This document shows positions 1 through 39,118 of a DNA stretch of 64,000 nucleotides, piece by piece. The notes under the pieces were generated by a model. It was not told the origin of the DNA, searched no databases, and worked only from the letters and a program-made list of their open reading frames with translations. Each line of letters opens with the position of its first letter. Position 1 is the stretch's first letter. Position numbers and translations under genes: made by a program. The DNA lies in the IMG/VR virus record IMGVR_UViG_3300036778_000017, positions 1 through 64,000 of that record, one strand, 5' to 3'. The stretch is from a virus (Duplodnaviria; Caudoviricetes).

Positions 1-722
1 CGCCTGATCCAGCCAGACTCCTCCTGAGCCTGATGGTCCCACGGCTTGCGCCTGCCGTGGAAGAATACGAGTCGTGTCTTGGCGCTGAACGAGCCCAGAC
101 GACGACAGTGCAGCGGATAGCTCGCCAACACCGGATACGGAATGTCAGTGTGGCCGGGCTTGCCGACCAATTTCCAGCTCAGCCACGACTGATCAGAACC
201 AAGAAATCCCGCCAGCTTCGCAGCCCTCGGCGACGTCTCAGGGTCAAACTCCTCCCATACGTGACGGAGTGTTCCGGCCGTGAACATCTGGAACGATCCA
301 TTGTAGACAGTGTCGTGAGGAGGGTGTCCAGCGAGTGCCCATCCGACGAATGTTCCTTCCCATCTGAATATTCCACTCAAGTCTCCCGTCACCACGGTGT
401 CCAGATCGAGGCTGACGATCCGCTGACCACGCGGTATTCCCATCTCACGCTGCGTCTTGATGTCGTAGATCTTCAGCCTGCGATAGCACGACGGCAGGTT
501 CTCCTTCGTGGCGTTCTCGAGCTCGCCGCAGTCCGGCCACAGCGGATACGTCTCGGTCTGCGTTATGCCTGTCGGGTCATCCGTCACGCACACGACGCGA
601 ACGTCGACGCTGCCCGCGTTCTTCTTGACTGCCTGTGACAGAACGTCCACGTGCTGCGCGGTGTACGATCGCTGAACGTTCGGCTTCCCCTGCCACTTCC
701 ACAGAACGACGTGTACAGTCAC
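1..722 (-). CDS. Glycosyltransferase, GT-A fold (GT8-like), truncated at window edge; missing from the ORF track
   Basis: Hand translation from GTG at 722, which overlaps the stop at 719-721: MTVHVVLWKWQGKP...RVVCVTDDP...IVSLDLDTVVTGDL (DxD)...YNGSFQMF...GSDQSWL...LVFFHGRRKPW. No stop before base 1. Confidence 0.8.
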   Translation of the reverse strand, partial: MTVHVVLWKWQGKPNVQRSYTAQHVDVLSQAVKKNAGSVDVRVVCVTDDPTGITQTETYPLWPDCGELENATKENLPSCYRRLKIYDIKTQREMGIPRGQRIVSLDLDTVVTGDLSGIFRWEGTFVGWALAGHPPHDTVYNGSFQMFTAGTLRHVWEEFDPETSPRAAKLAGFLGSDQSWLSWKLVGKPGHTDIPYPVLASYPLHCRRLGSFSAKTRLVFFHGRRKPWDHQAQEESGWIR

Positions 723-1459
723 ATGACCCTCGAGTAAGGCAGGCGATGCGGATTGATCGCCCGATAGCCCGGGCCTGTCCGCTTCTGATTGAGATACTGG
801 TTCTTGGCGGCCCAGAGTTCACCCTCCTTTCGGGTGAGGCCGCGCGTGTTGCAGTCGCCGATGTCGTTGATCTCGTACATCACCATCTTCCACGTGTCGA
901 TGTACTCCTCGATCAGGCCCCACGCCTTGGCGCACTTGCGAAAGTTCCCGTCACTGCCGTAGTAGCCGACGAAGTCCTCGTCGTAGCCACCCATCTCCCA
1001 GAAATCCTGCTTGTGGAACAGGAACGTGTTCGGATGCGAGTGATACGGAGTCCCAGAGCTCCTGCATCGTCCAGGCATGTAGTAGTGGCCACGCTCTGCA
1101 TAGTCGTCGACGAACTTGTTCATGCGCAGAGCCGCAGACGGGCTGAGCTCGTGGTCCATGTCTGTCATCAGGTTCCACATTGCCTCCGTCTGCTTCATCG
1201 CGATGTTGCGAGCACCGTCCTGTCCCCACGGCCTGTTCACCTGAACGCGAAAGACCATGAAGTCGACGGGGCGATGACTACCCCAGCGATCCCTGATCAC
1301 GGTGTCGGCAGCCACAGTCTGACTGCAGTCGTCCACGATGATGAACTGCATGCGACGCAGCACCGATGAGTCGTACTGCAACCACTTGTCGAGGTGATGC
1401 CGGAGCATCTGCGGATTGTCGAAGTATGCGTAGACGAGACCAATCTTCGCCAGCGTCAT
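719..1459 (-). CDS. Glycosyltransferase, GT-A fold (GT2/GT7-like)
   Basis: FIIVDDCSQ, WGQDGARNIAMK, MTDMDH (DxD), FWEMGGYDEDFVGYYGSDGNF. Start at MTLAKIG (ATGA overlap with the upstream stop). Confidence 0.85.
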   Translation of the reverse strand: MTLAKIGLVYAYFDNPQMLRHHLDKWLQYDSSVLRRMQFIIVDDCSQTVAADTVIRDRWGSHRPVDFMVFRVQVNRPWGQDGARNIAMKQTEAMWNLMTDMDHELSPSAALRMNKFVDDYAERGHYYMPGRCRSSGTPYHSHPNTFLFHKQDFWEMGGYDEDFVGYYGSDGNFRKCAKAWGLIEEYIDTWKMVMYEINDIGDCNTRGLTRKEGELWAAKNQYLNQKRTGPGYRAINPHRLPYSRVM

Positions 1460-2181
1460 GCGACGGGTCCGCGGAAGTAGTCTGTCATCAAGTTCGGCCT
1501 GTCCTTGTCGCCGTACAGCGACGAGTTGCCCGCGCCCAGCACGTGATCCACCAGACACGGAATGCGATACAGGATCTTGCGACCCTGACGGTTCAGGCAC
1601 TCGCCGATGATCAGGTCGATGTTCTTGTCCATGTCCTCGCGAGCAGCGTACTCCTGGAACGTCGCGTCGTTCTTCAGCCAGTCAGCCATCTCGCGATTGA
1701 ACACCAGACACTGAGCTCCCCACGTCTTCTTGCCGAACTGCATGTCCTTCCAGTGCCATCCTGCACCGAGTTTCATGCGACCGCGCGCGTCCTCCGCGGG
1801 CTTGGTCATGCGTCGACAAGCGAACAGCGACAGTGCGCCGACCATGTGCAGATCATTCTTGCTGCGCTCGAGATACAGCAGATCGCTCTGCAGAGCAGTA
1901 GACGCCCCCGCCTGCCACACTATGTCGTCCTCGCAGATCATGACCCACTCACTGTTCAGCATGCCGGACGACAGATGCCCGAGCGCCCTGATCCAGTTTC
2001 GCTTGTTGCCCAGAGGCACCTCGTTGGGGAGCCAGAAGATGCCGTCCTGCACCATCGGGTCACCGCCGTCGCTGAACACGACCACGTCTCGATTGAAGCC
2101 CGCCCGGCGGAGCGACGCGATCGACTTCTCGACCGTTGGGCGGGGGCGCGGAGCGGTTATGATGCCGATGCGAAGTGTCAT
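1456..2181 (-). CDS. Glycosyltransferase-like protein, GT-A fold
   Basis: WVMICEDDIVW acidic motif, GAQCLVF, IPCLVDHVLG. Start at MTLRIGII (ATGA overlap). Confidence 0.7.
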   Translation of the reverse strand: MTLRIGIITAPRPRPTVEKSIASLRRAGFNRDVVVFSDGGDPMVQDGIFWLPNEVPLGNKRNWIRALGHLSSGMLNSEWVMICEDDIVWQAGASTALQSDLLYLERSKNDLHMVGALSLFACRRMTKPAEDARGRMKLGAGWHWKDMQFGKKTWGAQCLVFNREMADWLKNDATFQEYAAREDMDKNIDLIIGECLNRQGRKILYRIPCLVDHVLGAGNSSLYGDKDRPNLMTDYFRGPVA

Positions 2182-2777
2182 CGAATCGTCACCCACCAGA
2201 ACGATGCGTCCAGCCGGAAGTTCTTGTTCCTCGGCTTCCCCTTGTTGATCGACACCTTGGCGCGACCGTGGAAGTGACGCTGAACCGCTGTCTCAACGCC
2301 CGGCCACGTGAAGTCATCACCCGCCATGGTGCCGCCCTTCTTCATCTTGGGCAGCCAGACCTCGATGTCCTTCATGACAGCGTCGTACGAGTGGTCGCCG
2401 TCCAGCATGATGAAGTCCACGCTCTGGTCCGGGAACCACCGGCTCGCCTCGACGCTCTCCATCTTCATGGCCTTCAGCCGATGAGCGATTGGCGCGACGT
2501 TGCGCTGGAAGATCTCGTACACTGGCGCGTCCAGACACCGAAAGTACTGAGTGTCGCGAAGGTCCGGGCCGCCGTCCTCCCACGGATCGACGCACACGAA
2601 CTCGATATCCTTGCCGCTGTTCTCGATCTCCACTCCCATGAGCGCTGCAGACCGACCGAGCCAGCTGCCGACCTCGATGAAGCGCGACCCGGTCGGGAAC
2701 TGTCGCACTGCGTCGATGTACAGCTGCTCGAACGCGGCCCATCCAGGAACATTCTTGTAGTAGTGCTGCATTGCCAT
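2178..2777 (-). CDS. Class I SAM-dependent methyltransferase (Methyltransf_24-like)
   Basis: FIEVGSWLGRS motif I, VDFIMLDGDHSYDAV, KKGGTMAGDDF. Confidence 0.85.
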   Translation of the reverse strand: MAMQHYYKNVPGWAAFEQLYIDAVRQFPTGSRFIEVGSWLGRSAALMGVEIENSGKDIEFVCVDPWEDGGPDLRDTQYFRCLDAPVYEIFQRNVAPIAHRLKAMKMESVEASRWFPDQSVDFIMLDGDHSYDAVMKDIEVWLPKMKKGGTMAGDDFTWPGVETAVQRHFHGRAKVSINKGKPRNKNFRLDASFWWVTIR

Positions 2778-2806
2778 TGTCCTACCCAGACTCTATTGGG
2801 AGCAGA

Positions 2807-2833
2807 GCGGAGACGAGGTGATGTCGCCTCCGC
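2807..2833 (-). terminator. 10-bp hairpin (one G-U pair) upstream of the methyltransferase/GT block; weak U-tract
   Basis: Minus strand GCGGAGGCGA-CATCACC-TCGTCTCCGC followed by TCTGCT. Confidence 0.4.
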
Positions 2834-2843
2834 CTTCTCCGCA

Positions 2844-3236
2844 CTACACCTTGGTCGCTGTCGTCAGGCCCGCGACGCCCGGAGGATGCCACGACTTGTT
2901 CCCGTGCTTGTCGATGACGGGAGTGCAGCCGTTGTCCTCGCGGCCCATGTTCGGATCGATCTTGGGGTGATCAGGGTCGTTGCCCTTCGCGGCCTCCTCG
3001 ATCTTCGCCATGTTCTTCGCGTGACCCTCTTCGTTGTGCTTCGACAGATTGTCGAGACGCTGCTTGACAGCGTCCTTCGCAGCGTCGCTGCCGAGCTCCA
3101 CGGTGTTGGTCTTGATGTCCTCGCCGGCAGTCTCAGAGAGCTTGTCGGCGTTCAACTTGTCCTGCGCCGCCTTGTTCGCAGCGGCTGCCTTGTCGGCAGC
3201 TGCCTGATCGGCAGCAACTTTTGCAGCATCAGCCAT
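2844..3236 (-). CDS. Hypothetical Ala/Asp/Lys-rich protein in the head module
   Basis: 130 aa ORF co-oriented with neighbours, RBS-like GGAGA upstream, ADQAAADKAAA repeats. Confidence 0.6.
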   Translation of the reverse strand: MADAAKVAADQAAADKAAAANKAAQDKLNADKLSETAGEDIKTNTVELGSDAAKDAVKQRLDNLSKHNEEGHAKNMAKIEEAAKGNDPDHPKIDPNMGREDNGCTPVIDKHGNKSWHPPGVAGLTTATKV

Positions 3237-3302
3237 GACTGGCCATCTCCATATTCGTTTCGCCTCTGGTAGAAACCGCTCGGACGAGGCACTGCCGACC
3301 GG

Positions 3303-27981: not shown

Positions 27982-30144
27982 CTAGGCAGCAAGTAACTCA
28001 GGAGCCCGGCCCTTGCCGGGCTTTCTTGCGTCTGAGAACGGATACTTGGCCGTTCCCCACGTCTCGCCATACTCCTCGTCAACGCGCATCGGCACGCTGA
28101 TTCTGATCGCGTTGCGCATTATCTCACCAATGGCCTGCCCGTCCTTCTCGCGTGTCAGCGAGAACGCGAGCTCATCGTGCATCTGAAGCATCGGTATGAA
28201 GCCAGCCCGGGCGCACATGGCCATAGCCTTCTTCGTCTGGCGAGCAGCGGAACCCTGGATCAAGCGGTTCATCGCCTTGCGCGTGTCGGCACGGCGAAGC
28301 TTCTTGCCGAACCACGGATGGCCCTTGGTCTCGCAGCGCTCGAGCGCCTCCTCCAGTCGGCAGCTGTTCATGGCGAACTTGTACGCATAGCCGCGCCGCT
28401 TCTCCTCACGGTCCAGCCACTTCGGCTCAAAGTCATCGAAGTGCGATCGCGCCTTGTCGATCATGCGGATGTATCCGCGGTCCTCGGCATAGCCCTGACA
28501 CAGCGCGTTCAGCTGCTTGACGAACGGCATCTCGCCGTCGTACTGCCCCATCACCTGCTCCGCCTCATCAAGCGTCATGCCGGTCATGGCAGCAAACTTC
28601 TTGACCCCCGCTCCGTACGCCTTCGCGAAGTTCACGTCCTTGGCGCGGCGTCGAGTGAGACCAGTCATCTCGACCACCAGATTGTGGAAGTCGGTGTTCG
28701 GGTCACTCAGGTACTTGGCCACGGCCTCGTCGGCCTTCTTGCAGCCGAGTAGAGCAGCGTAGTGCACGATCAGGCGATACTCCTGCTGCGAGTAGTCCGG
28801 AGCGAACCACAGCTGCCCCCTCTCCGGGAGGAACGCCATGCGCAGATACTTCGCGATCATCTCCGTCGTGTGCCAGCCCTCCACCGGGTCCGGCCGAGAT
28901 GGCATCTGCTGAAGCGGGGGTTCCGAATAGCTGAACCGATGCGAGCGTGTTCCACCGTCCTCAGTCTTGAACTGATTGATGTTGGCGTGTATGCGGCCCT
29001 CGTACACTGAGTTCTTGAGATACGCCCTGACGAACTTGGTCGCGGCCTCGTGGCACTGCTTCGCCTCTGCTATCGCCCGGGGCAGCGGATGCTCGGACGC
29101 GCGCATCCAGTCCTTGCTGAACTCAGTCTCTACCTCGCCGTCCTCGTCCTCGCCGCGCATGTACTCTTCTTCATCCACACCGTGGACCTGACATGCCTGG
29201 ATGAGCCATGACTTCTGGCGTATCTCGTCGATGGACACTCTCTGCTTCGTGATGTCGTATATCTTGTTGAGCGCGAATTGATACTGCTTCATGAGCTCGT
29301 TCTCGAGCCAGTCCAGCCTCTCCTCGTTGACGCGGACACCACGCTTGCGCATGGCGTGCACCACCGGGATCAATTCCATCTCTAGATCGTAGGCACCTGT
29401 CAGGTCCTGCTCCTCGATCTGCGGTACCATCTTCTCGAATGCCAGCAAAGTCGAGCGCGCGTCCTGTTCGGCATACGGTCCCACGTATCTGGCTGGCATC
29501 TTGGCGAGATACTTCTTGACGTCGTCGCCCTTGTATCCGAAGCTGAACGCTGCGTCTCGCAGCATTGCCTCGTCCTTGCGCTCTACACCACACCACTCAG
29601 CAATGGAGTCCAGGCTGTACGCACTCTTCTGTCCCTTCTTGGCCCTGCGGTTCTCATCAATCATCATGGCCTGACAGCCGATGTCATTGATGAACTCGTA
29701 GTCCGGTAGCTCGAGACCGAGGCCGCCGCTGTACTCTCCGGCGTTGAACCATCCTAGATCATATCCCGCGTTGCAGAAGATGCGACGCTGTCCCTTCTTG
29801 GCCCTCAGCAGATGCTGGACCCACTTCTTGGCTCGCGAGCGATCGAAGCAGTTCGTGTCCGGATGTTCGATCGGCACGTAGATCGAGCGGACCTCTCCGC
29901 CCTGTCTCCATGCCGCTGACACACCGGCTATGTATCCTCCAGCTGAGCGAGAGTTGAACGCCCAGCCCGGTCCTGCTCCTCGTATTATACCATTGTCCAG
30001 TTCCTCGCTGTCTATCGCCACGTCCTGGACACGACTGAGGTCTGGCAGTTCCCCCGGCACGACCCAGCTGCTCTCTGGCGTTATCAGGGGCATCTGGCTC
30101 GGATCCAGCTTTGTTCTGCGCGGCTTGATGGATCTTGTCTTCAT
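27982..30144 (-). CDS. polA: DNA polymerase, family A, with 3'-5' exonuclease domain
   Basis: Exonuclease motifs IDSE, NAGYD, YAEQD; motif A PDYSQQEYR, motif B RRRAKDVNFAKAYG, motif C MHDEL. Confidence 0.95.
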   Translation of the reverse strand: MKTRSIKPRRTKLDPSQMPLITPESSWVVPGELPDLSRVQDVAIDSEELDNGIIRGAGPGWAFNSRSAGGYIAGVSAAWRQGGEVRSIYVPIEHPDTNCFDRSRAKKWVQHLLRAKKGQRRIFCNAGYDLGWFNAGEYSGGLGLELPDYEFINDIGCQAMMIDENRRAKKGQKSAYSLDSIAEWCGVERKDEAMLRDAAFSFGYKGDDVKKYLAKMPARYVGPYAEQDARSTLLAFEKMVPQIEEQDLTGAYDLEMELIPVVHAMRKRGVRVNEERLDWLENELMKQYQFALNKIYDITKQRVSIDEIRQKSWLIQACQVHGVDEEEYMRGEDEDGEVETEFSKDWMRASEHPLPRAIAEAKQCHEAATKFVRAYLKNSVYEGRIHANINQFKTEDGGTRSHRFSYSEPPLQQMPSRPDPVEGWHTTEMIAKYLRMAFLPERGQLWFAPDYSQQEYRLIVHYAALLGCKKADEAVAKYLSDPNTDFHNLVVEMTGLTRRRAKDVNFAKAYGAGVKKFAAMTGMTLDEAEQVMGQYDGEMPFVKQLNALCQGYAEDRGYIRMIDKARSHFDDFEPKWLDREEKRRGYAYKFAMNSCRLEEALERCETKGHPWFGKKLRRADTRKAMNRLIQGSAARQTKKAMAMCARAGFIPMLQMHDELAFSLTREKDGQAIGEIMRNAIRISVPMRVDEEYGETWGTAKYPFSDARKPGKGRAPELLAA
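28003..28027 (+). terminator. Intrinsic terminator
   Basis: AGCCCGGC-CCTT-GCCGGGCT-TTCTT. Confidence 0.65.
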
Positions 30145-30320
30145 CTGAACAGCTTGTCTAACAGAGGATACCACGCCACGCCGACGTAGATTATGAACGT
30201 GTACGTGATGTTGAACACCGTGACACTATTGGTCTTGCTGTGCACGTACAGAGGAATGACGATCGCAAAACCCGCGACCGTCACGTAGTAGTAAGCTCGT
30301 ACGAGAGCCTCGATGATCAT
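30141..30320 (-). CDS. 59-aa two-TM protein (not in track)
   Basis: MIIEALVRAYYYVTVAGFAIVIPLYV...FIIYVGVAWYPLLDKLFR; overlaps both neighbours (TGATG/ATGA). Confidence 0.55.
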   Translation of the reverse strand: MIIEALVRAYYYVTVAGFAIVIPLYVHSKTNSVTVFNITYTFIIYVGVAWYPLLDKLFR

Positions 30321-31390
30321 CAGTTGGGCTCACGCGCCCAGTGACTGAAGGTCTCAGACAGCTTGTACTTTCCGTCGCCATCGTCCTGATAGTACATGAA
30401 CTTGAAGTCCTGCCGACTCTCGTCGTACTCCTTCGAGTTCATCTCACGTATCAGCCTCGGGAAGTTATCGTCGATGCTCTCTGGAACGTGCTGCCTCTTG
30501 AGCGCCCAGCGATTGTCTTTTACGTACTCGTAGACATGCGCCAGTTCCCTCGGACAGTGGTGCGCCCCAACTATCGGCTCCAGCTGGTAGACACCAGATG
30601 CCCGCACCGTGTAGAACATGTCGGCCACTGCGCCGACCCTGATCTTCAGCGCGTCGTAGTACGGCTGGTCTATCACCCACGGAACGAGGCTCTCGTGCTG
30701 CTCGCCACCATCCGGCCCCCGTTCCTCTCCGATATCCCTCGCAACCGTGGCGTCGTCGATGACGTCGGCGGTAGGCGGGGGCTCGGCAGGTGGATAGAAC
30801 ATGGCGCGAACTCGAGCCTCGACCTCCTCTCGAGACAAGCCCTTGTCGTCGGCTATCATCTGATACACGTCGGTTTCTGGCTGGTTGTACGTGGACTCGT
30901 ATGTCCTGCTCTCAGGTTCTACGACGCCGCGTGATATCATCTCTGCCTCGACGAGAATGAGATATCTGCGAAGATCGCGACACACCGCCAGCACCGTCCC
31001 GTCCTCACCCTTGGGCTTCTCCTCGATCTTTGCGAAGATATCCTCGGACGTCAGGCGATCCCTGAGCAACTCCAGGATCATCATGGTCGCTTCGATGCTG
31101 CCCGGCAGATCTAACTTGATGCGCTGCCCGTAGTGAACGAAGTTGCGGAACGCGCCGATGGTGCAGTGAATGTTCTCCATCGTCTTGACGTGATCTGGAA
31201 ACTCCTTCGGAGCCATCATCACGAGCAACCGATCGATGTTGCGCTTGGCCATGAACCACGCGCTGCGACCGCCGCTCAGCTTCCAGCTTCCCTGATACGT
31301 CGCCTCCTTGTTCTCCAGCACGGCGCAGTCAGAGAGCGCCACGCTCTCGAGGAAGTTCATGTGGTCCATGTTATGTTCTTGTCGTGCCAT
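30320..31390 (-). CDS. Nucleotide-modification-associated protein (Nmad1/DUF1599-like, all-alpha NTP-pyrophosphatase-like N-terminus)
   Basis: KEATYQGSWKLSGGRSAWFMAKRNIDRL...DLRRYLILVEAEM; located in the base-modification cluster. Confidence 0.55.
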   Translation of the reverse strand: MARQEHNMDHMNFLESVALSDCAVLENKEATYQGSWKLSGGRSAWFMAKRNIDRLLVMMAPKEFPDHVKTMENIHCTIGAFRNFVHYGQRIKLDLPGSIEATMMILELLRDRLTSEDIFAKIEEKPKGEDGTVLAVCRDLRRYLILVEAEMISRGVVEPESRTYESTYNQPETDVYQMIADDKGLSREEVEARVRAMFYPPAEPPPTADVIDDATVARDIGEERGPDGGEQHESLVPWVIDQPYYDALKIRVGAVADMFYTVRASGVYQLEPIVGAHHCPRELAHVYEYVKDNRWALKRQHVPESIDDNFPRLIREMNSKEYDESRQDFKFMYYQDDGDGKYKLSETFSHWAREPN

Positions 31391-31946
31391 ACTCTGTCTC
31401 CATCTGGGTGCGTGTCTTCATGTAGCGGTGTATCGCCGGGATCAGTGACTCGTGATCCCGGTACTCCTTGGTGTCTCTCATGCCCTCTAGATCGATGAGA
31501 TTGGCAGACACGGCGTTCATCATGCGATCGATGATCGTGATGGCGTACTTGTTGCCCATGTTGTACTCGCGCCAGCCGTGCTCCCACATCTCGATGTTCT
31601 CGCATGCCTTGAACACGTGGCGCTCGAACTGTGAGAGTGGATGCTTCAGCTGAGGAACACCGATTCGCTCGTTCTGCAGCTTCTCCACGATGTTCTCGGC
31701 CTTCTGCATCGCAGGCCGGAGCTCGCCGATCATGATCTTGAACGGGTACGGTATGTCGCCGGCCATCTCGCCCATGTCGTGCTTCACCGTGTAGATCAGA
31801 ATGTGACGTGGCGCTGATGGCCACACCGTTAGAATGATGCGCAGGATCTGCCACGAGTGCTCGCCTACGGACTGCTGATTATGGACCGCCCACGTGTGAT
31901 AGCGCCGGATTTCTCCTGACGCCCTCGGGTCCTCCGTGAGGTTCAT
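31371..31946 (-). CDS. HD-domain 5'-deoxynucleotidase (YfbR-like)
   Basis: IRRYHT...QSVGEHS...KHDMGEMAGDIPYP; ATGA-coupled to the TS-like gene. Confidence 0.85.
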   Translation of the reverse strand: MNLTEDPRASGEIRRYHTWAVHNQQSVGEHSWQILRIILTVWPSAPRHILIYTVKHDMGEMAGDIPYPFKIMIGELRPAMQKAENIVEKLQNERIGVPQLKHPLSQFERHVFKACENIEMWEHGWREYNMGNKYAITIIDRMMNAVSANLIDLEGMRDTKEYRDHESLIPAIHRYMKTRTQMETEYGTTRT

Positions 31947-33010
31947 CGGGACCTCGGGTTCGTGCGATGCTCGAACCACTGGATGACAGCCTGTCGCCAG
32001 TCCTCGGCCTCGATCATGAACGCCATGTCGCGGGCGGAGTGGCGCATGGCAGACTTCCAGCGATTGTGCGCGATGAAGATCGGCTCCGCGGTATTGCGGA
32101 ACCATGAGTTCTTGTAGTCGTGCACCGTGGTCTCGACGCCCTCTGTCACGAGGTTCTTCTGCCACTCCATGAACTTCTTGAGATCAGCGTCGAAGAAGTC
32201 CCATTCCTTGGCCATGGGCAGCGCTCGGATCTTCAGGCCCTCGTAGGTGCTCAGTGTCGGCTCGGTCCCTACCTTCTCGAGCGTCTCCTCGTACGCGTGA
32301 TAATTCCAGGACATCTGGTACATCTTGCCGACCAGCACGCCAACCCGGCCTGCCATGTACTCCTGCAAGATGCTGAAGTGAACGGCGTTGGCACCATACG
32401 CCCCGAGCACGATATCGTTGCTCCTGCACGAGATGAACATGTCCAGGAATGGCAACGGTTCGTCAGCGAAGACCTCCTTCCGAACCCGGAAGTAGACGTG
32501 AGTATTGCACGGCCGATCCTTCCAGACGCCATTCAGGTCGTTGGCTCCGTACTGAATATCGCACTCGCCGACCCTGCATCCCTGCTCGCGGGCATCCCAC
32601 ATCTGCAGAACGCACTGTCTGTCATCGTCCCTGAAGCGGAGGCGCTGAACGATGTGCTCCAGCTGATCGAAGCCCAGCGCCTGTCGCCATCGATGACCAT
32701 ACGCGCCGTGAACGCGGCCGTCCTCCTCGGCGAACCGAGTACCGAAGTCCGTGATGTATCTGTTCAGGGCGCTCACGTCGTCGCGCCCCGACAGCATCCA
32801 TAGCGACTCGAACAGATGGAAGAACGGATTAGCCCCGCGCTTCTGGTCGAAGAGCACGCGCTGGGTCGGCTTGCGGTACACGCTTGTCACCGGCATCGAC
32901 ATCACGCGCACCGGGCCGTTTCTGCTCGTCTCCCTTCGTCCCTCCGCGCCCATCAGACGCATGCCGCGCCAGTATAGCTCGTTGACGTCCTCACCCTCAA
33001 TTACGTGCAC
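31943..33010 (-). CDS. Thymidylate-synthase-family enzyme, probable dUMP hydroxymethylase
   Basis: RNG, NPFFHLFESLWMLSG, AYGHRW, catalytic PCN, CRSNDIVLGAYGANAVHF with Asn at the dUMP-specificity position; YHAY. Confidence 0.85.
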   Translation of the reverse strand: MHVIEGEDVNELYWRGMRLMGAEGRRETSRNGPVRVMSMPVTSVYRKPTQRVLFDQKRGANPFFHLFESLWMLSGRDDVSALNRYITDFGTRFAEEDGRVHGAYGHRWRQALGFDQLEHIVQRLRFRDDDRQCVLQMWDAREQGCRVGECDIQYGANDLNGVWKDRPCNTHVYFRVRKEVFADEPLPFLDMFISCRSNDIVLGAYGANAVHFSILQEYMAGRVGVLVGKMYQMSWNYHAYEETLEKVGTEPTLSTYEGLKIRALPMAKEWDFFDADLKKFMEWQKNLVTEGVETTVHDYKNSWFRNTAEPIFIAHNRWKSAMRHSARDMAFMIEAEDWRQAVIQWFEHRTNPRSR

Positions 33011-33308
33011 TTGGTCCTCCTTCCTTGCTCTCCTGAATGATCTGATGCAGCGCTGCCGGAGTGGTCCGCGACATCTTGTCAATGTGCTTCGCGACCGCGT
33101 TGATGGTCTTGGTCTCCTGAAGATACAGCGTCTCATCGTAGGACAGCACTGTCACGTGCACCAGCCTCGCGACGATCTGCTCGACCGCGAATGCTATCAT
33201 CTCCGGACACAGCCCCTCGAAGGTGTCGATCGCGTCGCATACCACCTGCTCAGCGTAGTCTTTTATGACCTGCTGCTTCTCAATGTCATCGATACATCTA
33301 CACAGCAT
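32997..33308 (-). CDS. Hypothetical protein
   Basis: ORF tiled within the cluster. Confidence 0.45.
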   Translation of the reverse strand: MLCRCIDDIEKQQVIKDYAEQVVCDAIDTFEGLCPEMIAFAVEQIVARLVHVTVLSYDETLYLQETKTINAVAKHIDKMSRTTPAALHQIIQESKEGGPSARN

Positions 33309-33756
33309 TGTAGAGCTCCTCTAGGAGCGCTGCCACCAGCGCTCTGTTGTTCTCGTCATTGTACCAGAAATTCCTGCCGCTCGGATGCGGGATCTGCCGC
33401 CACGTCGAGCCCCCGATCACCTGCGGATGGAGCAGGAGGCGGGGGTGGCCGAACGCGGCGACTGTGTCAGCGCCGAGGAGGACGATGACACGACCACTTC
33501 CGAAGAACTCGCTGTACAGTCTGTCGGCTCCCTCACGAGCCATCTTCTTGTTGAAGATCCTTGCGTTCATGACGTTGCGCCTGTCGAAGCGATCGAGATA
33601 CTGCTGACGGCGCACGTCAGGCACTCTCGTCTCGAGCATCTTGAACAGGCGATGTCCAGTGCATCCCTCAGGCGCTGGGAACAGAGCATACTTGGGGTCG
33701 TCGTGAAGAGGATTGTTCATCCCGATCAGGACCGGTCTCTTGTCTACTTTCTTCAT
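33298..33756 (-). CDS. Uracil-DNA glycosylase superfamily protein
   Basis: VLIGMNNP (motif A-like), VIVLLG, IPHPSGRNFWYN (motif B). Confidence 0.65.
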   Translation of the reverse strand: MKKVDKRPVLIGMNNPLHDDPKYALFPAPEGCTGHRLFKMLETRVPDVRRQQYLDRFDRRNVMNARIFNKKMAREGADRLYSEFFGSGRVIVLLGADTVAAFGHPRLLLHPQVIGGSTWRQIPHPSGRNFWYNDENNRALVAALLEELYNAV

Positions 33757-33819
33757 GCTCTTATTCTCGCCTGCCTCGTGTTCCGGTACAAGCAACCCCT
33801 GCGGGGCTGTGCATAACTT

Positions 33820-34769
33820 TTACTTGAGACCCATGAAGATCAGGTTGTCAACGGCTACGCGTCTCTTGTCGTGCTTCAGGCCGAGGTCGTCCATTGCCTT
33901 GAAAAGCCTGATGGTCACGCGCCACGCCTGCTCGACCATCATCTGCTGTTGTGTGTCCTGAGGCTCCATGGAGTATTGAATGGCCATCTCCCTCGCGATG
34001 GCTGGATCGAGCTCCTGTCTCACGACATTGCGATGCCAGTTCTCCAGCTGCGCTGCCAGAATGATTATGTTCATGTGATGCGCGATCGGTGGAAGGTCTG
34101 CAATCTTGATGCTAGTCATCTCAACAACTCCACGAGGCGTTCCATGTGATCAGCGGCGATCCTCGTTTTCTCGGCCGCGTACTGTATCCTCTTCATGCTC
34201 ATCTTTCGCGTGGCCAGCATGGTCACCAGCTGGAAGCCAGCCTCGCTGTGGACCTTGTGCGCGAGCACGAGCTCCTTCTCAATGTCTACTGGCGAACTCG
34301 CGGAGGAAGGATTTGTCTTCTTCCGAGAGGTCTTCTCTGTCGACTGCTCGAGCGACAAGCGCATCTGCCGCTCCGTCACCGTGGACGCGGTCGTAGAAGC
34401 GCTTTGCTTTTTCGACGCGACGCCTCTCGTGACGGTTCGTGCTCGTGACGTCCCTCCACGTGGTGTCTTCGCCTTGCTGGCCACGGTTGATCTTCTCCAG
34501 TTGTCTCTTGGCATTGACCCTGCGACGCTCCTTGTCGCTGAGCGTTGAGTAGCTCATCTGATAGAGACCTCCATTCCATTCACGATCATGATCTTTTCTC
34601 CAGAACCTCTCATGACGAACGCCTCGAATGTCTTGAGCTCCCACTGGAGCGCACCCTCGACGGCGTGCCGCTTCCCATCCTTGGTCTCGATCACTAGTCG
34701 CACGTCCTCAGACTGTCCGTTGGCGATCAGCCAGACCCTGAGTGCCTCCACTATCATGGAGAAATTCAT
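33820..34769 (-). other. Hypothetical genes 33820-34119, 34116-34514, 34554-34769
   Basis: Tiled ORFs. Confidence 0.5.
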
Positions 34770-35011
34770 GACGTCCTCCACGGCAGGCTCTGGTCGAATG
34801 CCTTGCTGAAGTGTCGTATCCTGCAGACCTGGAAGTGCCTCTCTGCCTGTCGATCGAGACACCAGCCCACGATGTACCACTGCGAGCCATCGTGAGGATA
34901 ATACTTGCTCTCGAGAAACCGAATGCCGGTAGGCACCACGCGCCGTTCCTCGTCATATCCCTCGTGATTGACATAGTCGAATGTCACGACTTTCCCGTCC
35001 CAGACGCTCAT
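34766..35011 (-). CDS. Stand-alone WYL-domain protein
   Basis: VTFDYVNHEG...RRVVPTGIRF...QWYIVGWCLDRQAERHFQVCRI. Confidence 0.75.
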   Translation of the reverse strand: MSVWDGKVVTFDYVNHEGYDEERRVVPTGIRFLESKYYPHDGSQWYIVGWCLDRQAERHFQVCRIRHFSKAFDQSLPWRTS

Positions 35012-35348
35012 GTGTCGTCACCTCCTCTACACTCCTTGCAGATCCAGGCAGCCGTGCCCATCTGTGTCGTGTACATGTGACACGAGCGCCATCGACGACA
35101 GCACTCGCACTCGATCTCGATCGGAGCCTTCGTGAGCCTGCTCATCGCGGCATCTCCATCACGAAGTAGACGTCGTCTGGCCGCTCAGCGATGGCTGTCT
35201 TCATGGCAGCTGACGCCTCCTTGGCCGTGGCGTGAGCCGATAGGAAGCGTGCCAGCACCACCCGGAACGGGAACTCCTTGTCCGGTCTGCGTTGCGTGGC
35301 AGCTACCTTCTTCGCAACGGCCTTCTTGTTCACCTTGGGCTTCTTCAT
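35008..35348 (-). other. Two small genes: 35008-35145 (CxCC...CxxC, not in track) and 35142-35348 (Lys-rich)
   Basis: ATGA/TGATG-coupled; MSRLTKAPIEIECECCRRW...WICKECRGG. Confidence 0.55.
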
Positions 35349-35944
35349 CACTTCCTCCCCAGAAGCAGAATGTGCCAGTTGCCGCCGCGAAACAGGACCG
35401 TCTCCTCGACGTCCCATCCCAGCTGCCTGATCAGGGCCAAGAACGGACGCTTGGCGTGCTCCGACGTGTTCGACTTCGGCAGGTACTTCTCGCCGAAGCG
35501 AATGGTGCACACGATGTTCTTCTTGGCGACGCGGCAGATCTCCTTTACCGTGGCACGCATGCCGTCCTGATCGATCAGGTCCAGAAAGCGCACGCAGATC
35601 ACCATGTCTGCCGACTTGTCCTTCACCTCTAGGTTCGTGGCAGATCCCTGCTCCAGCTGAATGTGCTTCGCCTTGGCCCCGCGAAGTTTCTTCTTGGCGA
35701 GGTCGAGCATCGCCTCGCTGATATCGATGCCGAGCACCGTGCACGATGCCTTCGCATAGTCCTCGAAGAACCGGCCGGTTCCCACTGGAACGTCCAGGAC
35801 TGTCCTTGGTTTCAGCTCCGCGATCCACGCTCCAACCGTCTCGTTCTCGAGGTTCCAGCGCGCCTGCTTCTTGCGAATGTCCTCGTACGTCTCGGCCTTG
35901 CGGCCGCGATACTTCTTGCTCGTCTGCTGCAGACTGACCATCAC
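35348..35944 (-). CDS. Class I SAM-dependent methyltransferase
   Basis: VLDVPVGTGRF, GIDISEAML, ADMVICVRFL; coupled to the kinase gene. Confidence 0.85.
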   Translation of the reverse strand: MMVSLQQTSKKYRGRKAETYEDIRKKQARWNLENETVGAWIAELKPRTVLDVPVGTGRFFEDYAKASCTVLGIDISEAMLDLAKKKLRGAKAKHIQLEQGSATNLEVKDKSADMVICVRFLDLIDQDGMRATVKEICRVAKKNIVCTIRFGEKYLPKSNTSEHAKRPFLALIRQLGWDVEETVLFRGGNWHILLLGRK

Positions 35945-36486
35945 TCATCTCCATCGTGCGGCCCGAGCCACCGCCTGATCACCTCGAAGCAGGCGTCTCG
36001 GTCGCCCACCACTGTCTCGCAGTGAAAGTTCACCGCGTCTCGGTGAACCTTGTCGTACGTCTTCTTGATCGACTTCTCGGCGATCCTGTGCCCACGCTTG
36101 CGCACGTCTCTGAGGCACGTGGCCACGTCCGTGTTGAGCACGACGACGCGAACTTCGAACTTCTCAGCCACGAGCTCGTTGACACGAGCCACGCCATCGC
36201 TCATGTTCTTCCCCTCCATGATGACGTCGTGGCCAGACCGAGCCGCCCAGCGCGCGATCTCGTATGCCTCGTCAAGCGACTTCAGCGTGTCGATGCCCCC
36301 GTTCGCAATCTGGTAGTGACCGGGGGTCACGAGACACTTCCCAGCGACGGTTCGGCCGTGCAGCGTGTACAGCGGCTTGACGCGAGGCGGAGCCATGAGA
36401 TCGCGATGCTTCGTGTAGAGCGCCACGACGCGTCGCACCAGATGGCTCTTGCCGGAGCCAGATGTTCCCCTGACTGATATGATCAT
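35941..36486 (-). CDS. P-loop kinase (5-hmdU DNA kinase / nucleotide kinase-like)
   Basis: IISVRGTSGSGKS Walker A, GGIDT, VIMEG, CLRDVRKRG lid. Confidence 0.8.
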   Translation of the reverse strand: MIISVRGTSGSGKSHLVRRVVALYTKHRDLMAPPRVKPLYTLHGRTVAGKCLVTPGHYQIANGGIDTLKSLDEAYEIARWAARSGHDVIMEGKNMSDGVARVNELVAEKFEVRVVVLNTDVATCLRDVRKRGHRIAEKSIKKTYDKVHRDAVNFHCETVVGDRDACFEVIRRWLGPHDGDE

Positions 36487-37478
36487 AGCCCTGCCGCCAG
36501 CCTCGCCTTGTCCAGTTGGTCCACGAGGCGAATGTAGAAGTCGCCACGGTTCCACTCGCGACGCTGCTCCCTGCCGATGTCCTCGCGATTGGCCATGAAG
36601 CGCTTCACGTCGATTGCCTTGCTGACCACGTACGGATCGGGATTGAACCCGGCCTTGCGAAGCATGCTGCCCGACTCTGGCTGGAACACCATCGGCAGTC
36701 CCGCGCTCAGCATCTCGTAGAACCGATTGGCCGGCGAGTGGAACTCCTCGCTGGACTTGCGGTCCTCGATGTACAGGCCGAGGCCAAACGAGCCGAGCGC
36801 ACCGTAGAAGTTCTCGCCGATGGCTCCCATGTGCCGACACAGCGGATACTTCTTGGCGAACTTGTCTACCGGACTACTGATCACAGTCTCGACCGCAGGG
36901 CGAGTGAAGTAGCGATCGAACAGCGGCACGCGACTAGACTTGCCGCTCCCGTCGCGGAACGAGCCGTAGTACAGAAGCGTGTCCTTGGCATCGGCGCGCC
37001 GCTTCTTGATCTTGCTCTCGCTGTACTGCTGGTCGAACGTCAGCATGTTCCAGTTGACGTAGTGACTGCCGGGCAGCGTGTACCACTTCTCGCACGTGCT
37101 CCAGAAGATCGTGCGCTCCTTCCCCTCCTTCTTTCGCGTGACGAACGCCTTGCGGAATGGTGACTCGGCACCAGCATCGTCCTTCGGCGGGATGATGGTG
37201 TAGTCGTTCTGGACCCACACCACGCGCTTCGCACCGAGGATCGCTCGAGACAGAGGCTCAAGAACCTTGCTGAACCCATACGCGCCGTTCACTATGATCA
37301 GCACGTCTAGGTTCGTCATGTCGCCGATCTCAGCACCGCACACCAGCGGAATGTCAGACATGGTCATGTCGCCGAGTGTCTTCTGCAGCCAGCGCGCTAT
37401 TCGCACGCTCGCGACCATGCTGTTCTCGCTGATGCGCACGAAACTGAACATCGCGATTTTCTTCTTTCTACCCGCCAA
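36483..37478 (-). CDS. GT-B glycosyltransferase resembling T4 DNA beta-glucosyltransferase
   Basis: LLYYGSFRDG (compare T4 BGT LIYGGSFRSG) and GLYIEDR...ANRFYEMLSAGLPMVF (compare LIIGDK...LRVWETMAS); comparison from memory. Confidence 0.65.
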   Translation of the reverse strand: MAGRKKKIAMFSFVRISENSMVASVRIARWLQKTLGDMTMSDIPLVCGAEIGDMTNLDVLIIVNGAYGFSKVLEPLSRAILGAKRVVWVQNDYTIIPPKDDAGAESPFRKAFVTRKKEGKERTIFWSTCEKWYTLPGSHYVNWNMLTFDQQYSESKIKKRRADAKDTLLYYGSFRDGSGKSSRVPLFDRYFTRPAVETVISSPVDKFAKKYPLCRHMGAIGENFYGALGSFGLGLYIEDRKSSEEFHSPANRFYEMLSAGLPMVFQPESGSMLRKAGFNPDPYVVSKAIDVKRFMANREDIGREQRREWNRGDFYIRLVDQLDKARLAAGL

Positions 37479-37487
37479 TTCTTCCTC

Positions 37488-37888
37488 CTACCCGCTGAGT
37501 GTTTCAGTTGCCGCCCCGACGTACTGTTCCCAGCTGTCGTCAGGTATCTTGAGAATGATGACCCTGAGCCAAGTCCAGTGCAACATCTCGACTGGATTGA
37601 TCAGCTTGTTCTTGTGATCATCAATCAACTTCAGTGCTTCTTCCTTTGTCATCTCTTGAATTCCCACGTACAGGTCGCCTTGTCGCCCGGGCGAACGTCA
37701 GGCTTGTTGTCACAGCGCACGGCGGTTCGGCTGTCCACGAACGTGATCCACCAGCCGTCCGATACCTCCCTAGTGCTGGCGTCCGGCCCCGTGCCTCCGG
37801 CCCACTCAGTCCGGAAGCGCTCGACGACGTCCTTCACCGTGCAGACCTGCACGTACTGCGTGATCTTCTCGCTCACTACCTCAGGCAC
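37488..37888 (-). other. Two small genes: 37488-37652 (not in track, AT-richer) and 37649-37888
   Basis: MTKEEALKLIDDHKNKL...; ATGA overlap. Confidence 0.55.
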
Positions 37889-38825
37889 GATACACTCCTC
37901 TTGGCTTGCCCTCCTTCAGGCGAACACGCTCGTACTTGTCGAACTCACAGAGCGTGTGCTCCACGTCACGCATCTCCCAGTCCGGCCACTCCTTCTTCGT
38001 CATGCCCATGGCCACGCGCATCCGGCTCCAGTGCTCGGCTCTGGAGCTCTCGTCCAGGATCACTACCATGTACTTCAGCATCTCGTCGCGTCCGCTGAAC
38101 TTCGCGGTCTTGTCGCGGCCCATCACGCGGTTCAGCCCCCGCTTGCACCCGGGACCGGGGGATGCCCACGTGTCGATGTCGTTCGCCTTGTTGAGCAGGA
38201 ATGTGTGACGCAGGTCAGTCACGATCTCGTACGAGTGGAAGTTGCCGAAGTATGGCTGCTCGCGCAGCCACTCCCAAGCCCCCTCGAGACTGTACTCGTT
38301 TCTTCGTGGATTGTCGTTCAGCCAGTGCCGCCAGTCGCTCTTCCTCCAGAAGTTCTGCAGGACCCAGAGCACGCCGTCCAGCTTCGTCATGCCAGCCGGC
38401 GAGGAGATGATGTAGGCACCAGTCACGTACGGACCGCGCGGCGTTCTGCTCACCAGCGCGCGCTTCAGCGGCCTGACGTCGCCCCTCGCAGCGAACTCCT
38501 CGAAGGCGCCGAAACCCTTCTTGAGATCATTGTCCTGGAACATCGCAACGCCACTCTCGATCCTGTTCAGCATGCGAAACACGACGGTCGCGAGCAGAAC
38601 GCGCTCGTCCTTGTTCCTGTGCAGCGGCCCGCGAACGTTGTCTGCGAACCACTTGGTTGTCTTGTCCAGCTCCCGGAAGACGTTGGTGAACCGGAAGCGG
38701 TAAAGGATAGGATCATCAGTCTCCCACTGCGGTCGCAGTCGCTTGTAGAGATAGATCTGGTGACGGGCCTGCGCGTAGTTGAAGAAGCGACGCAGGCCCT
38801 CTCTCGGCAGCTTGATCTCCTTCAC
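37881..38825 (-). CDS. aG/PT-PPlase clade 1 / 5-hmdU DNA kinase helical-domain protein
   Basis: FFNYAQARHQIY...TDDPILYRFRFTNVFRELDKTT...FRMLNR...YEIVTDLRH...PGPGCKRGL...EHTLCEFDKY. Confidence 0.85.
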   Translation of the reverse strand: MKEIKLPREGLRRFFNYAQARHQIYLYKRLRPQWETDDPILYRFRFTNVFRELDKTTKWFADNVRGPLHRNKDERVLLATVVFRMLNRIESGVAMFQDNDLKKGFGAFEEFAARGDVRPLKRALVSRTPRGPYVTGAYIISSPAGMTKLDGVLWVLQNFWRKSDWRHWLNDNPRRNEYSLEGAWEWLREQPYFGNFHSYEIVTDLRHTFLLNKANDIDTWASPGPGCKRGLNRVMGRDKTAKFSGRDEMLKYMVVILDESSRAEHWSRMRVAMGMTKKEWPDWEMRDVEHTLCEFDKYERVRLKEGKPRGVYRA

Positions 38826-39118
38826 TTCTTCCTCCACGCACCGAGGTTCTGCCGACGCCACTCCTGCGCCCGACTGGCCATGTCCCGAGCCTGATCGACC
38901 TGCGGCCTGTCAGTCAGTGGTCTCTCGCCCACGAGGATCTGGTACTCGCGGAAGTCTGCCCACTCCATCACGATCCTGTGGAACATTGGATCTCGACCGA
39001 GCAGCGTGAAGCGCGGCTCACCGGGCAGTGCCCGGTGATAACAGTCGTTGGGATCGATCTTCGCGGACATGATGTCCTCCTCCAGTTCGAGTTGAGCGAG
39101 TGGGTCATTTGGCATCAT
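38822..39118 (-). CDS. Conserved hypothetical phage protein
   Basis: CYHRALPGEPRFTLLGRDP motif; coupled to both neighbours. Confidence 0.6.
   Translation of the reverse strand: MMPNDPLAQLELEEDIMSAKIDPNDCYHRALPGEPRFTLLGRDPMFHRIVMEWADFREYQILVGERPLTDRPQVDQARDMASRAQEWRRQNLGAWRKK

Follow-up and report, generated by a model that had tools for sequence, protein, structure and literature searches.

The gene of interest occupies minus-strand positions 36483-37478 of the window, the 64,000-nucleotide stretch of DNA that was analysed, which belongs to the 73,980-bp, 96% complete genome of an uncultured phage. It encodes a protein of 331 residues (GT), which we read as a GT-B glycosyltransferase resembling T4 beta-glucosyltransferase (BGT) on the basis of a fold model and an hhalign match. 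The TTG start codon is 5 nt behind an AGGAGG sequence, and the N-terminus obtained from this start (basic residues, then FSFV) agrees with those of homologues; the alternative start from the gene caller, an ATG nine codons later, gives a protein of 322 residues. Upstream of GT is the gene for an HMUDK_hel protein (37881-38861, minus strand; PF18723, 4e-39), whose start is either 38861 or 38825, with two small ORFs (37649-37888 and 37488-37667) between the two genes. Downstream is the gene for a P-loop kinase (35941-36486, minus strand; AAA_33 and the N-terminal part of phrog_800). The initial annotation had placed GT between a helical-domain gene and a P-loop kinase gene and had described it as ATGA-coupled to the latter. 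Both the position and the coupling were borne out, the stop codon of GT and the start codon of the kinase gene sharing the ATGA at 36486-36483. A second overlap, GTGA, joins the kinase stop to the start of a class I SAM methyltransferase of the small-molecule/O-methyl type (35348-35944, minus strand; Methyltransf_25, 2e-19; Methyltransf_11, 6e-17). No nucleotide-sugar synthesis gene was found beside GT.

Other genes of the cluster are also on the minus strand. They include a thymidylate-synthase homologue (31943-33136; phrog_5131 at 7e-87), read as a dUMP hydroxymethylase, and an HD-domain nucleotidase (31371-32165; YfbR-like, 2.6e-4; phrog_6047, 7.5e-23), a candidate dTMP/dTTP-depleting enzyme that occupies the same cluster position as PaMx11 gp52. 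The true start of the synthase homologue is probably about 40 codons inside its ORF, and that of the nucleotidase is probably the ATG near 31946. A UDG-superfamily-like protein (33298-33795; phrog_12275, 1.6e-19; weak PF03167 match, 0.034) and a small WYL-domain protein (34766-35011; PF13280, 4e-12) are also present. The cluster is closed by a family A DNA polymerase (27982-30174), whose best matches, at 31-34% identity, are in HTVC023P-type pelagiphages and M6/PaMx11-like phages. Plus-strand ORFs at 33-3272 gave no family matches and were discarded; the real genes in that region are on the minus strand.

The AF2 model of GT (pLDDT 93.6, pTM 0.90) has strands and helices alternating in two halves, consistent with a GT-B fold. 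Using VIA-align, more than 100 GT-B chains matched the model at Z >= 8, all of them covering residues 1-322. The closest solved structure was T4 BGT (Z 20.0, 289 residues, 3.9 A), which was also the best Foldseek match (6e-9), and the second structural match was T4 AGT (Z 16.8). The predicted fold is thus GT-B with T4 BGT as its nearest structure, in line with the BGT-like enzyme proposed earlier. BGT (GT63; PF09198; PDB 1BGT, 1C3J, 1J39) is likewise a two-domain GT-B protein of similar size (351 versus 331 residues) and a phage enzyme clustered with a hydroxymethylase of the thymidylate-synthase family, although identity between the two is only ~14% and PF09198 does not match GT. T4 AGT (PDB 1Y6F, 1Y8Z) is, as we propose for GT, a DNA-modifying GT-B enzyme, and according to PDB titles it was crystallised on DNA with a 5hmU base. 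It differs from GT in being a retaining enzyme with another active site; in its conserved Asp and in its arrangement of Arg and Glu residues, GT resembles BGT.

The sequence homology between GT and BGT is remote and became visible only with a diverse profile. A Pfam hmmscan of GT gave no family at E <= 0.01, PF09198 included, and a PHROG scan gave no match. Searches of PDB sequences, by phmmer with GT or by hmmsearch with a 47-sequence profile, returned no BGT chain and nothing relevant. PF09198 is, however, carried by ESM Atlas neighbours of GT. Direct comparison with BGT was weak, at about E 0.02, whether a single sequence or 47 sequences were used; with the 47 close homologues hhalign gave E 0.016, in the C-terminal half only. 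When the profile was extended to 116 diverse sequences (A4), hhalign matched residues 55-331 of BGT at E 1.3e-5 with a probability of 80%.

The motifs YYGSFR (residues 170-175) and NRFYEMLSAG (residues 251-260) are the most conserved parts of the GT family (611 cluster representatives), and both BLASTP and hhalign place them on BGT residues 186-191 (YGGSFR) and 268-277 (LRVWETMASD). The likeness of YYGSFR and RFYEMLSAG to BGT, to which the initial annotation had drawn attention, is therefore not due to chance. Residues R175, R252 and E255 of GT align with R191, R269 and E272 of BGT, while R183 is one column off R195. In addition, hhalign pairs D92 (VWVQND92Y) with BGT D100 (YYLFTD100I), a pairing that is based on the alignment and not on superposition of coordinates. 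Among the 116 relatives, no variation is seen at R175, R183 and E255, and very little at R252 and D92. We take Arg191, Arg195, Arg269 and Glu272 of BGT to be its contacts with UDP, and Asp100, located where strand beta-4 ends, to be its catalytic base. From the alignments, D92 is the predicted catalytic base of GT and R175, R183, R252 and E255 are its predicted nucleotide-sugar contacts.

Below BGT and AGT, the structural matches of GT are ordinary GT4-type enzymes that act on lipids, sugars and proteins (Z 13-16.5), and close to its head genes the genome has additional GT2-like and O-methyltransferase genes. These observations would fit an enzyme that modifies a protein, lipid, cell-wall polymer or small molecule and whose position in the cluster is coincidental. 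We consider such a target unlikely. The top two structural matches are both T4 DNA glucosyltransferases and GT overlaps the 5hmU DNA kinase gene. The GT family is almost wholly viral, with base-modification neighbours across lineages down to 24% identity (homologues of dUMP or dCMP hydroxymethylase, TET/JBP, C5-methylase and HMUDK_hel), and one of its members is fused to a domain of the DNA-glycosylase fold.

The base made by the phage was deduced from its synthase, the only thymidylate-synthase homologue in the 96%-complete genome. The best cultured matches of this protein are dUMP hydroxymethyltransferases of M6/PaMx11-type phages (37-38% identity). At positions 143/146/169/177 of E. coli ThyA it has D/C/D/N, as read from an alignment with E. 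coli ThyA, T4 gp42 and PaMx11 gp51; the diagnostic features at these positions are a uracil-specific Asn177 and a hydroxymethylase-type residue at 143 (PMC13326640). No C5-methylase was detected in the phage genome, and a search for TET/JBP, run without a positive control, gave no match. Since the single synthase has the signature of a dUMP hydroxymethylase and neither C5-methylase nor TET/JBP was detected, the phage can, to judge from its genes, make only 5hmU and not 5hmC, which upholds the choice of base made in the initial annotation.

T4 BGT acts on 5hmC, which T4 obtains using a dCMP hydroxymethylase, whereas the present phage has a dUMP-type enzyme. The precedent of BGT would favour a modified cytosine as acceptor (5hmC or 5-hydroxycytosine, as in T4 or RB69). 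So would the family members L045 and L036, which have dCMP-type synthase homologues or a C5-methylase as neighbours, and a distant homologue in Straboviridae phages such as Cronobacter S13. However, the combination of Asn177 and Asp169 indicates that the sole synthase homologue is neither a dCMP hydroxymethylase nor a 5-hydroxy-dCMP synthase, the latter having D169N (PMC13326640), and its closest characterised relatives are the M6/PaMx11-type enzymes described above. A cytosine target was rejected on these active-site residues, and we regard it as highly improbable.

GT had originally been described as lying between the two halves of a putative 5hmU DNA kinase. This part of the description did not hold for either flanking gene. 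Over its full length, the P-loop protein shares 35% identity with PaMx11 gp49 (E 1e-29). PaMx11 gp49 is listed as a 5-HMUDK, and gp49 and M6 gp54 each phosphorylate 5hmdU alone (PMC8989533). By sequence, then, the P-loop protein corresponds to a stand-alone 5-hmdU DNA kinase. The helical domain, supposedly the other half, appears from structure comparison to be a separate protein of the helix-hairpin-helix DNA-glycosylase fold, resembling the amino-acid:DNA transferases (AADT), and it is paired with GT even where no such kinase was found. Its domain was formerly named aGPT-Pplase clade 1, and it is reportedly dispensable in published reconstitutions. A search for aGPT-Pplase3 (PF18746) gave no match anywhere, controls likewise, and hence was uninformative.

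The HMUDK_hel protein is 45% identical to PaMx11 gp50 and has the invariant residues C305-E306-x-x-K309. The top 25 VIA-align matches were all of the HhH-glycosylase type, including QNG1 (Z 10.3), the PaMx11 AADT gp46 (Z 10.1) and Mag1 (Z 8.9), values in a range where helical proteins may match by chance. Foldseek gave E 0.18 or worse and nothing at E <= 0.001, and no match was found among PDB sequences. C305 aligns with C247 of gp46, the catalytic cysteine of that transferase (PMC11472151), only in a weak hhalign match of 14 columns (E 0.18). Prediction of a complex between GT and HMUDK_hel gave a score of 0.00, which speaks neither for nor against binding.

We also compared the neighbourhoods of GT homologues. 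Where the flanking sequence is long enough, nearly every 5hmU-type locus with GT also has HMUDK_hel (the exceptions are L023 and L024), and no cytosine-type or TET locus has it. Two cultured E. coli phages, vB_EcoM_IME392 (MH719082) and EP_H11 (OP688485), have a homologous cluster of GT, HMUDK_hel, P-loop protein and synthase, and in IME392 there is a PIG-L deacetylase as well. In one protein, P0199, GT and HMUDK_hel are fused. Searches for longer relatives, using both the single sequence and profile A4, gave P0199 alone; consequently, the evidence from fusion is one protein from one MAG contig. The co-occurrence counts are drawn from related phages and, as the tree indicates, are not independent events; in a quick GT tree the HMUDK_hel-linked members are scattered over deep branches. 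Three complete genomes contain GT, HMUDK_hel and a dUMP-type synthase, with the kinase undetected (1e-80 in the control genome). The methyltransferase is present among related loci only where the kinase is present. Distant GT members are directly beside TET/JBP dioxygenases (L041 and L052) or dCMP-type synthase homologues (L045 and L036), and these loci have neither kinase nor HMUDK_hel. A neighbourhood of TET/JBP or synthase genes is the setting of experimentally shown phage DNA glycosyltransferases (bioRxiv 10.1101/2023.12.21.572611).

The explanation that we favour, with a little better than even confidence, is that GT is a T4 BGT-type DNA glycosyltransferase that puts a sugar on 5hmU in the phage DNA. 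Gene context is the basis for 5hmU as the probable acceptor, and for glucose as a possible sugar and base J as a possible product. The dUMP hydroxymethylase and the HD nucleotidase would replace dTTP by 5-hydroxymethyl-dUTP, and 5hmdU would be built into the phage DNA. After replication, GT would flip the 5hmU base from the duplex, and D92 would take a proton off the 5-hydroxymethyl group, which would then attack the C1 of a nucleotide-sugar supplied by the host (probably a UDP-hexose). The resulting glycosyl-oxymethyl-uracil, of the base J type, would shield the DNA from host nucleases. Its partner would be the HMUDK_hel protein with its apparent glycosylase fold, and in this phage GT would be co-translated with the 5hmU DNA kinase and the SAM methyltransferase, which may tailor the sugar or convert 5hmU sites left unglycosylated.

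Plain glycosylation of 5hmU, however, needs neither a kinase nor HMUDK_hel. Since GT is coupled to the former and tightly linked to the latter, the acceptor may be a later intermediate. In that case the substrate of GT would still be DNA, but the group glycosylated would be other than the free hydroxyl of 5hmU, and the modification formed would be of the sugar-phosphate or linker-sugar kind. The kinase would first make 5-phosphomethyl-dU, the AADT-like HMUDK_hel would exchange or process the phosphomethyl group through its invariant cysteine, GT would glycosylate the resulting group or the phosphate, with SP-15, YerA41 and Carin-5 as models, and the methyltransferase would cap the product. We think this possible but clearly less likely than direct glycosylation. 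The translational coupling of GT, kinase and methyltransferase and the restriction of the methyltransferase to loci with the kinase are in its favour, as is the apparent likeness in fold between HMUDK_hel and gp46, with C305 aligned to C247 in a similar local motif (PMC11472151). YerA41 and Carin-5 have thymidine modifications with phosphate and sugar, and IME392, which has a homologous cluster, is listed with phages having a YerA41/Carin-5-like DNA polymerase (PMC12686479). On the other hand, the hhalign match to gp46 is weak, and the three complete genomes in which the kinase was undetected argue that phosphate activation is not required for the GT/HMUDK_hel pair. Distant members that have TET/JBP or dCMP hydroxymethylase genes as neighbours lack both kinase and HMUDK_hel, as direct glycosylation of a hydroxymethyl group would predict.

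The clusters of M6, PaMx11, ViI, SP10 and PhiW-14 combine a 5-HMUDK with an AADT (PMC8989533, PMC5889632). These clusters and the present one are related in gene content and in local gene order (kinase, HMUDK_hel, dUMP hydroxymethylase, HD protein and family A polymerase). T4, unlike this phage, has no HMUDK_hel partner, kinase or methyltransferase. In contrast to those phages, the present phage has no AADT, PLP, radical SAM or FAD enzyme; it has a glycosyltransferase and a SAM methyltransferase instead, and the expected product is a sugar adduct rather than one derived from an amino acid. A search of the 73,980-bp genome for AADT (PF18724) gave no match, against 3e-29 for the PaMx11 control in the same search, and none of the six GT-bearing genomes, this phage included, gave one. 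GT and HMUDK_hel might together form a two-enzyme unit, the mark of a second, glycan-type branch of thymidine hypermodification that replaces the AADT branch, a proposal that we find doubtful. HMUDK_hel would then be no accessory of the kinase but a cysteine-dependent enzyme whose target is the substituent at C5 of DNA uracil. The base finally formed in this phage would go beyond plain base J, for instance to a phosphorylated or O-methylated glycosyl-oxymethyl-uracil or to a sugar attached by a substitution that HMUDK_hel mediates.

Base J is the sugar-bearing thymine of kinetoplastids and is made by a GT-A enzyme. This enzyme, JGT, carries out the reaction that is proposed for GT in direct glycosylation, the transfer of a sugar to 5hmU in DNA. 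The two would be alike in function only. A JBP dioxygenase acts before JGT, which has a GT-A fold, whereas GT has a predicted GT-B fold and would follow pre-replicative synthesis of 5hmdUTP. Of the new GT-B route to base J-like DNA that was originally envisaged, the GT-B fold stands. A class of BGT-like GT-B DNA glycosyltransferases beside thymidylate-synthase homologues had been described before (Pyle et al., bioRxiv 10.1101/2023.12.21.572611). In that study, GT-B genes were more often beside thymidylate-synthase homologues (~28%) than beside 5mYOX. GT53, GT66 and GT94 of the 5mYOX/ThyS clusters are, as is proposed for GT, BGT-like GT-B enzymes of DNA hypermodification from metaviromes, a comparison made by description and not by sequence, and the TET/JBP neighbours of L041 and L052 are a further likeness to these clusters. 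Unlike the activity proposed here, the enzymes tested by Pyle et al. (Cell Rep 2024) acted on 5hmC, and the text of the preprint nowhere mentions a kinase, while GT is coupled to one. Glycosylation of 5hmU by a phage enzyme has not been shown in the searchable literature, recent work predicting it from gene neighbourhoods only.

If direct glycosylation of 5hmU is correct, GT would represent a convergent GT-B route to base-J-like DNA and a new class of anti-restriction modification across hundreds of uncultured phages. The enzyme would be a possible reagent for selective labelling of 5hmU. The comparison of loci also offers a first functional lead for the HMUDK_hel domain, which follows GT rather than the kinase.

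The glycosyltransferase (GT) gene, an open reading frame of 331 aa at 36483-37478 on the minus strand, lies in a phage genome, an IMG/VR virus record of 73,980 bp that includes the window and is 96% complete by CheckV, and all genes around it are carried by the same strand. Its TTG start is preceded by AGGAGG at a distance of 5 nt, and the resulting N-terminus is similar to those of homologues. The GT stop overlaps the start of the P-loop kinase gene (35941-36486, minus strand) in an ATGA, and the kinase stop overlaps the start of the SAM methyltransferase gene (35348-35944, minus strand) in a GTGA. The initial annotation of a gene resembling phage T4 β-glucosyltransferase (BGT), with two BGT-like motifs and ATGA coupling to the kinase, was confirmed by the open reading frame, the motifs at residues 170-175 and 251-260 and the overlaps seen in the sequence.

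No relevant match to GT was found in Pfam, PHROGs or PDB sequences. The GT family is large, well conserved and nearly all viral; a word-indexed search gave 473 related proteins, and the family has 611 representatives at 50% clustering (276 at <1e-30). An AlphaFold2 model built with 47 homologues (pLDDT 93.6, pTM 0.90) was compared with known structures, the check proposed in the initial annotation, and showed a GT-B fold. T4 BGT was the top match in two independent structure searches, Foldseek (1J39, E 6e-9) and VIA-align (1C3J, Z 20.0, 289 residues, 3.9 Å). T4 α-glucosyltransferase ranked second (Z 16.8), followed by generic GT4-type enzymes (Z ≤16.5), and PF09198-carrying clusters were among the nearest neighbours in the ESM Atlas. 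Sequence comparison of T4 BGT with GT, either pairwise or with a 47-sequence profile, gave a weak match (E about 0.02) in which both motifs were nonetheless aligned correctly. Using a profile of 116 diverse relatives, residues 55-331 of T4 BGT were matched at E 1.3e-5 (probability 80%). In this alignment D92, R175, R252 and E255 of GT pair with D100, R191, R269 and E272 of T4 BGT, and R183 falls one column off R195; these T4 residues serve as general base and UDP contacts. All five GT residues are invariant or near-invariant in the family. The alignment and the conserved residue pairs identify GT, at the level of sequence, as a remote BGT homologue with an intact active-site pattern, outside the Pfam family as its profile defines that family.

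The phage genome contains one thymidylate-synthase homologue (31943-33136, minus strand), which we aligned with E. coli ThyA, T4 gp42 and PaMx11 gp51 using the diagnostic positions of PMC13326640. Catalytic Cys146 is present, and position 143 is Asp as in both phage hydroxymethylases (T4 gp42 and PaMx11 gp51). Position 177 is Asn, the uracil determinant, while T4 gp42 has Asp. The signature of 5-hydroxy-dCMP synthase is D169N (PMC13326640); since position 169 is Asp, the homologue is not such an enzyme. Its closest cultured relatives are dUMP hydroxymethyltransferases of M6/PaMx11-type Pseudomonas phages (37-38% identity). No C5-cytosine methylase was detected in the phage genome, nor was TET/JBP in a search run without a positive control. 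Because the single synthase homologue is of the uracil type and neither C5-methylase nor TET/JBP was detected, 5hmU is, judging from gene content, the sole hydroxymethylpyrimidine that the phage is equipped to make. Metavirome BGT-like GT-B DNA glycosyltransferases, which often adjoin thymidylate-synthase homologues, have demonstrated activity on 5hmC (bioRxiv 10.1101/2023.12.21.572611); for the present enzyme we consider a cytosine acceptor highly improbable. The longest open reading frame of the synthase homologue begins too early, with an Arg-rich 40-residue extension missing from homologues. That of the HD protein (31371-32165, minus strand) also begins too early, overlapping the synthase-homologue frame by 220 nt; the true start is probably an ATG near 31946, which would give an ATGA overlap with the synthase stop.

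The kinase is 35% identical to PaMx11 gp49 (E 1e-29), which is listed as a 5-hmdU DNA kinase (PMC8989533). The helical protein HMUDK_hel (PF18723; 37881-38861, minus strand) is 45% identical to PaMx11 gp50, and the Pfam assignments of both proteins are the same as for gp49 and gp50. PaMx11 likewise encodes the two proteins in separate genes, after which come those for the synthase homologue, HD protein and polymerase. The short P-loop kinase M6 gp54 and the kinase domain of SP10 gp186 each phosphorylate 5hmdU in DNA on their own, and M6 gp55 is dispensable for the kinase and transferase chemistry (Lee et al., PMC8989533); by gene position, gp55 is taken as the helical-protein homologue. Given the separate PaMx11 genes, the P-loop kinases active alone and the dispensability of gp55, GT does not lie between the halves of one enzyme. 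The kinase split in halves is thus lost from the initial interpretation, while the GT-B/BGT likeness and the uracil-type base are retained.

The HMUDK_hel model (pLDDT 87) gave no significant match with Foldseek. Its best 25 VIA-align matches were all helix-hairpin-helix glycosylase-type folds, with a queuine salvage enzyme (Z 10.3) at the top, then the 5-PmdU glycinyltransferase of PaMx11, gp46 (Z 10.1 over 217 residues), and after it Mag1, Ogg and EndoIII; for a helical protein such Z values are moderate. The family, with relatives in loci L007-L050 and PaMx11 gp50 (L054:5127-6014), shows 17 invariant residues, C305, E306 and K309 among them. The sole hhalign match to gp46, a weak one (E 0.18), places V-E-H-T-L-C305 on V-E243-T244-I-L-C247, C247 being the catalytic cysteine of gp46 (PMC11472151). 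We read HMUDK_hel as a paralogue of the amino-acid:DNA transferase (AADT, PF18724) that is possibly catalytic. HMUDK_hel stands alone as a protein, with an invariant Cys-Glu-x-x-Lys and a predicted fold of the DNA-glycosylase/AADT type, and the Pfam name 'helical domain of 5-hmdU DNA kinase' may be misleading. The family was previously named aGPT-Pplase clade 1.

Profile searches were carried out on 46 IMG/VR loci with a GT relative and on cultured-phage and assembly loci; the counts given below for HMUDK_hel, the kinase, AADT and other partners are drawn from related phages and do not represent independent events. HMUDK_hel occurs with GT in nearly all sufficiently flanked loci that carry a uracil-type synthase homologue; it is missing from L023 and L024 and also, at contig edges, from L011 and L013. 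The pairing persists in members that share only ∼25-30% identity with the GT of the window, and in deeply branching members of a quick GT tree. HMUDK_hel is absent from both cytosine-type synthase loci (L045 and L036, the latter also with a C5-methylase) and from L041 and L052, where a TET/JBP dioxygenase gene is the immediate neighbour of GT. GT and HMUDK_hel are fused within one open frame in the protein P0199, and searches for further fusions gave no second case. P0199 is encoded on a 78.6-kb contig (WJIT01000070 of GCA_014730125.1) from a MAG labelled Candidatus Lokiarchaeota; this contig may be a binned virus, since its neighbouring genes look viral (SbcCD-like, DUF932 and many small ORFs).

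The kinase is a less constant partner of GT than HMUDK_hel. Three complete genomes, of which two have terminal repeats, encode a uracil-type synthase together with GT and HMUDK_hel but gave no match to the kinase family at E ≤0.01 (control genome, 1e-80). These genomes, together with the TET-linked and dCMP-linked GT relatives, argue against the main alternative, in which GT acts on the product of the kinase and HMUDK_hel; translational coupling of the genes favours it, and we regard it as rather unlikely. We rank below it both the cytosine acceptor and an acceptor other than DNA, the latter being quite doubtful. AADT, present in PaMx11, was found in none of six GT-bearing genomes. We read the cluster as one for thymidine hypermodification with a BGT-like glycosyltransferase in place of AADT.

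The data show how GT folds, that it keeps the conserved residues of BGT, that the synthase homologue carries a hydroxymethylase signature of the uracil type, and that the genes are linked. The initial proposal of a GT-B enzyme acting on 5hmU agrees with the fold, the residues and the synthase; from these we infer the 5hmU acceptor, and we lean towards direct glycosylation of 5hmU by GT. The phage would incorporate 5hmdU into its DNA, and GT would flip the base, with D92 activating the hydroxymethyl oxygen to attack an NDP-sugar. The donor would most likely be supplied by the host, because GT has no sugar-nucleotide gene next to it. The outcome would be a nucleotide resembling base J that protects the DNA; possible roles for HMUDK_hel, the kinase and the methyltransferase are to modify this adduct further or to act on 5hmU sites left without a sugar. 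Glycosylation and O-methylation of 5hmU have been predicted from gene neighbourhoods in work on phage T-dioxygenases (PMC13229309). In the literature searched we found no demonstration of a phage 5hmU glycosyltransferase and no report of GT linked with HMUDK_hel or a 5hmU kinase.

Other GT loci carry radical SAM/SPASM enzymes, a second GT, a PfkB sugar kinase with TAGT, a PIG-L deacetylase or an amino-sugar synthesis set, and this variety argues for diverse glycans. The PIG-L locus belongs to the cultured E. coli phage vB_EcoM_IME392 (MH719082, 5298-10930), whose homologous cluster encodes, in order, the PIG-L family deacetylase, a 344-aa protein, a GT homologue, HMUDK_hel, a P-loop protein and a uracil-type synthase homologue, with no AADT in the phage. 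IME392 is a ready experimental model for such clusters, and its sugar is possibly of the glucosamine type. The amino-sugar set is on a Logan SRR19193838 contig (1-11889), where a 784-aa protein joins a GT domain to about 450 residues without a known family. It is accompanied by PIG-L deacetylase, NAD epimerase/dehydratase, hexapeptide acyltransferase, DegT aminotransferase, methyltransferase, dCMP deaminase, dUTPase and HD protein, and the cluster looks like one that puts an unusual amino sugar on DNA.

A radical SAM/SPASM gene adjoins GT at four distant loci (L042:8202-9197, L047:10906-11931, L037:10833-11819 and L051:11674-12615), a hint of further chemistry on the glycosylated base. In L042 and L047 it lies between GT and a dUMP-type synthase homologue, with HMUDK_hel directly upstream; both HMUDK_hel and a synthase homologue are missing from L051. 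A 257-aa ORF without a Pfam match (L035:8845-9615) separates HMUDK_hel from GT in a complete genome of 68 kb in which no kinase of this family was detected, and the GSGRCGTSSL loop of this ORF is reminiscent of sulfotransferase PAPS-binding loops. Within the window, some 34 kb away from the DNA-modification genes, four minus-strand ORFs occupy 3-2777: an O-methyltransferase (2178-2777; Methyltransf_24, 1.7e-18), an ORF without a family (1456-2196), a weakly GT2-like protein (719-1600; 1e-4) and a doubtful GT8-like protein cut off by the end of the window (3-722). Their products could lengthen a glycan on the DNA or place sugars on the virion.
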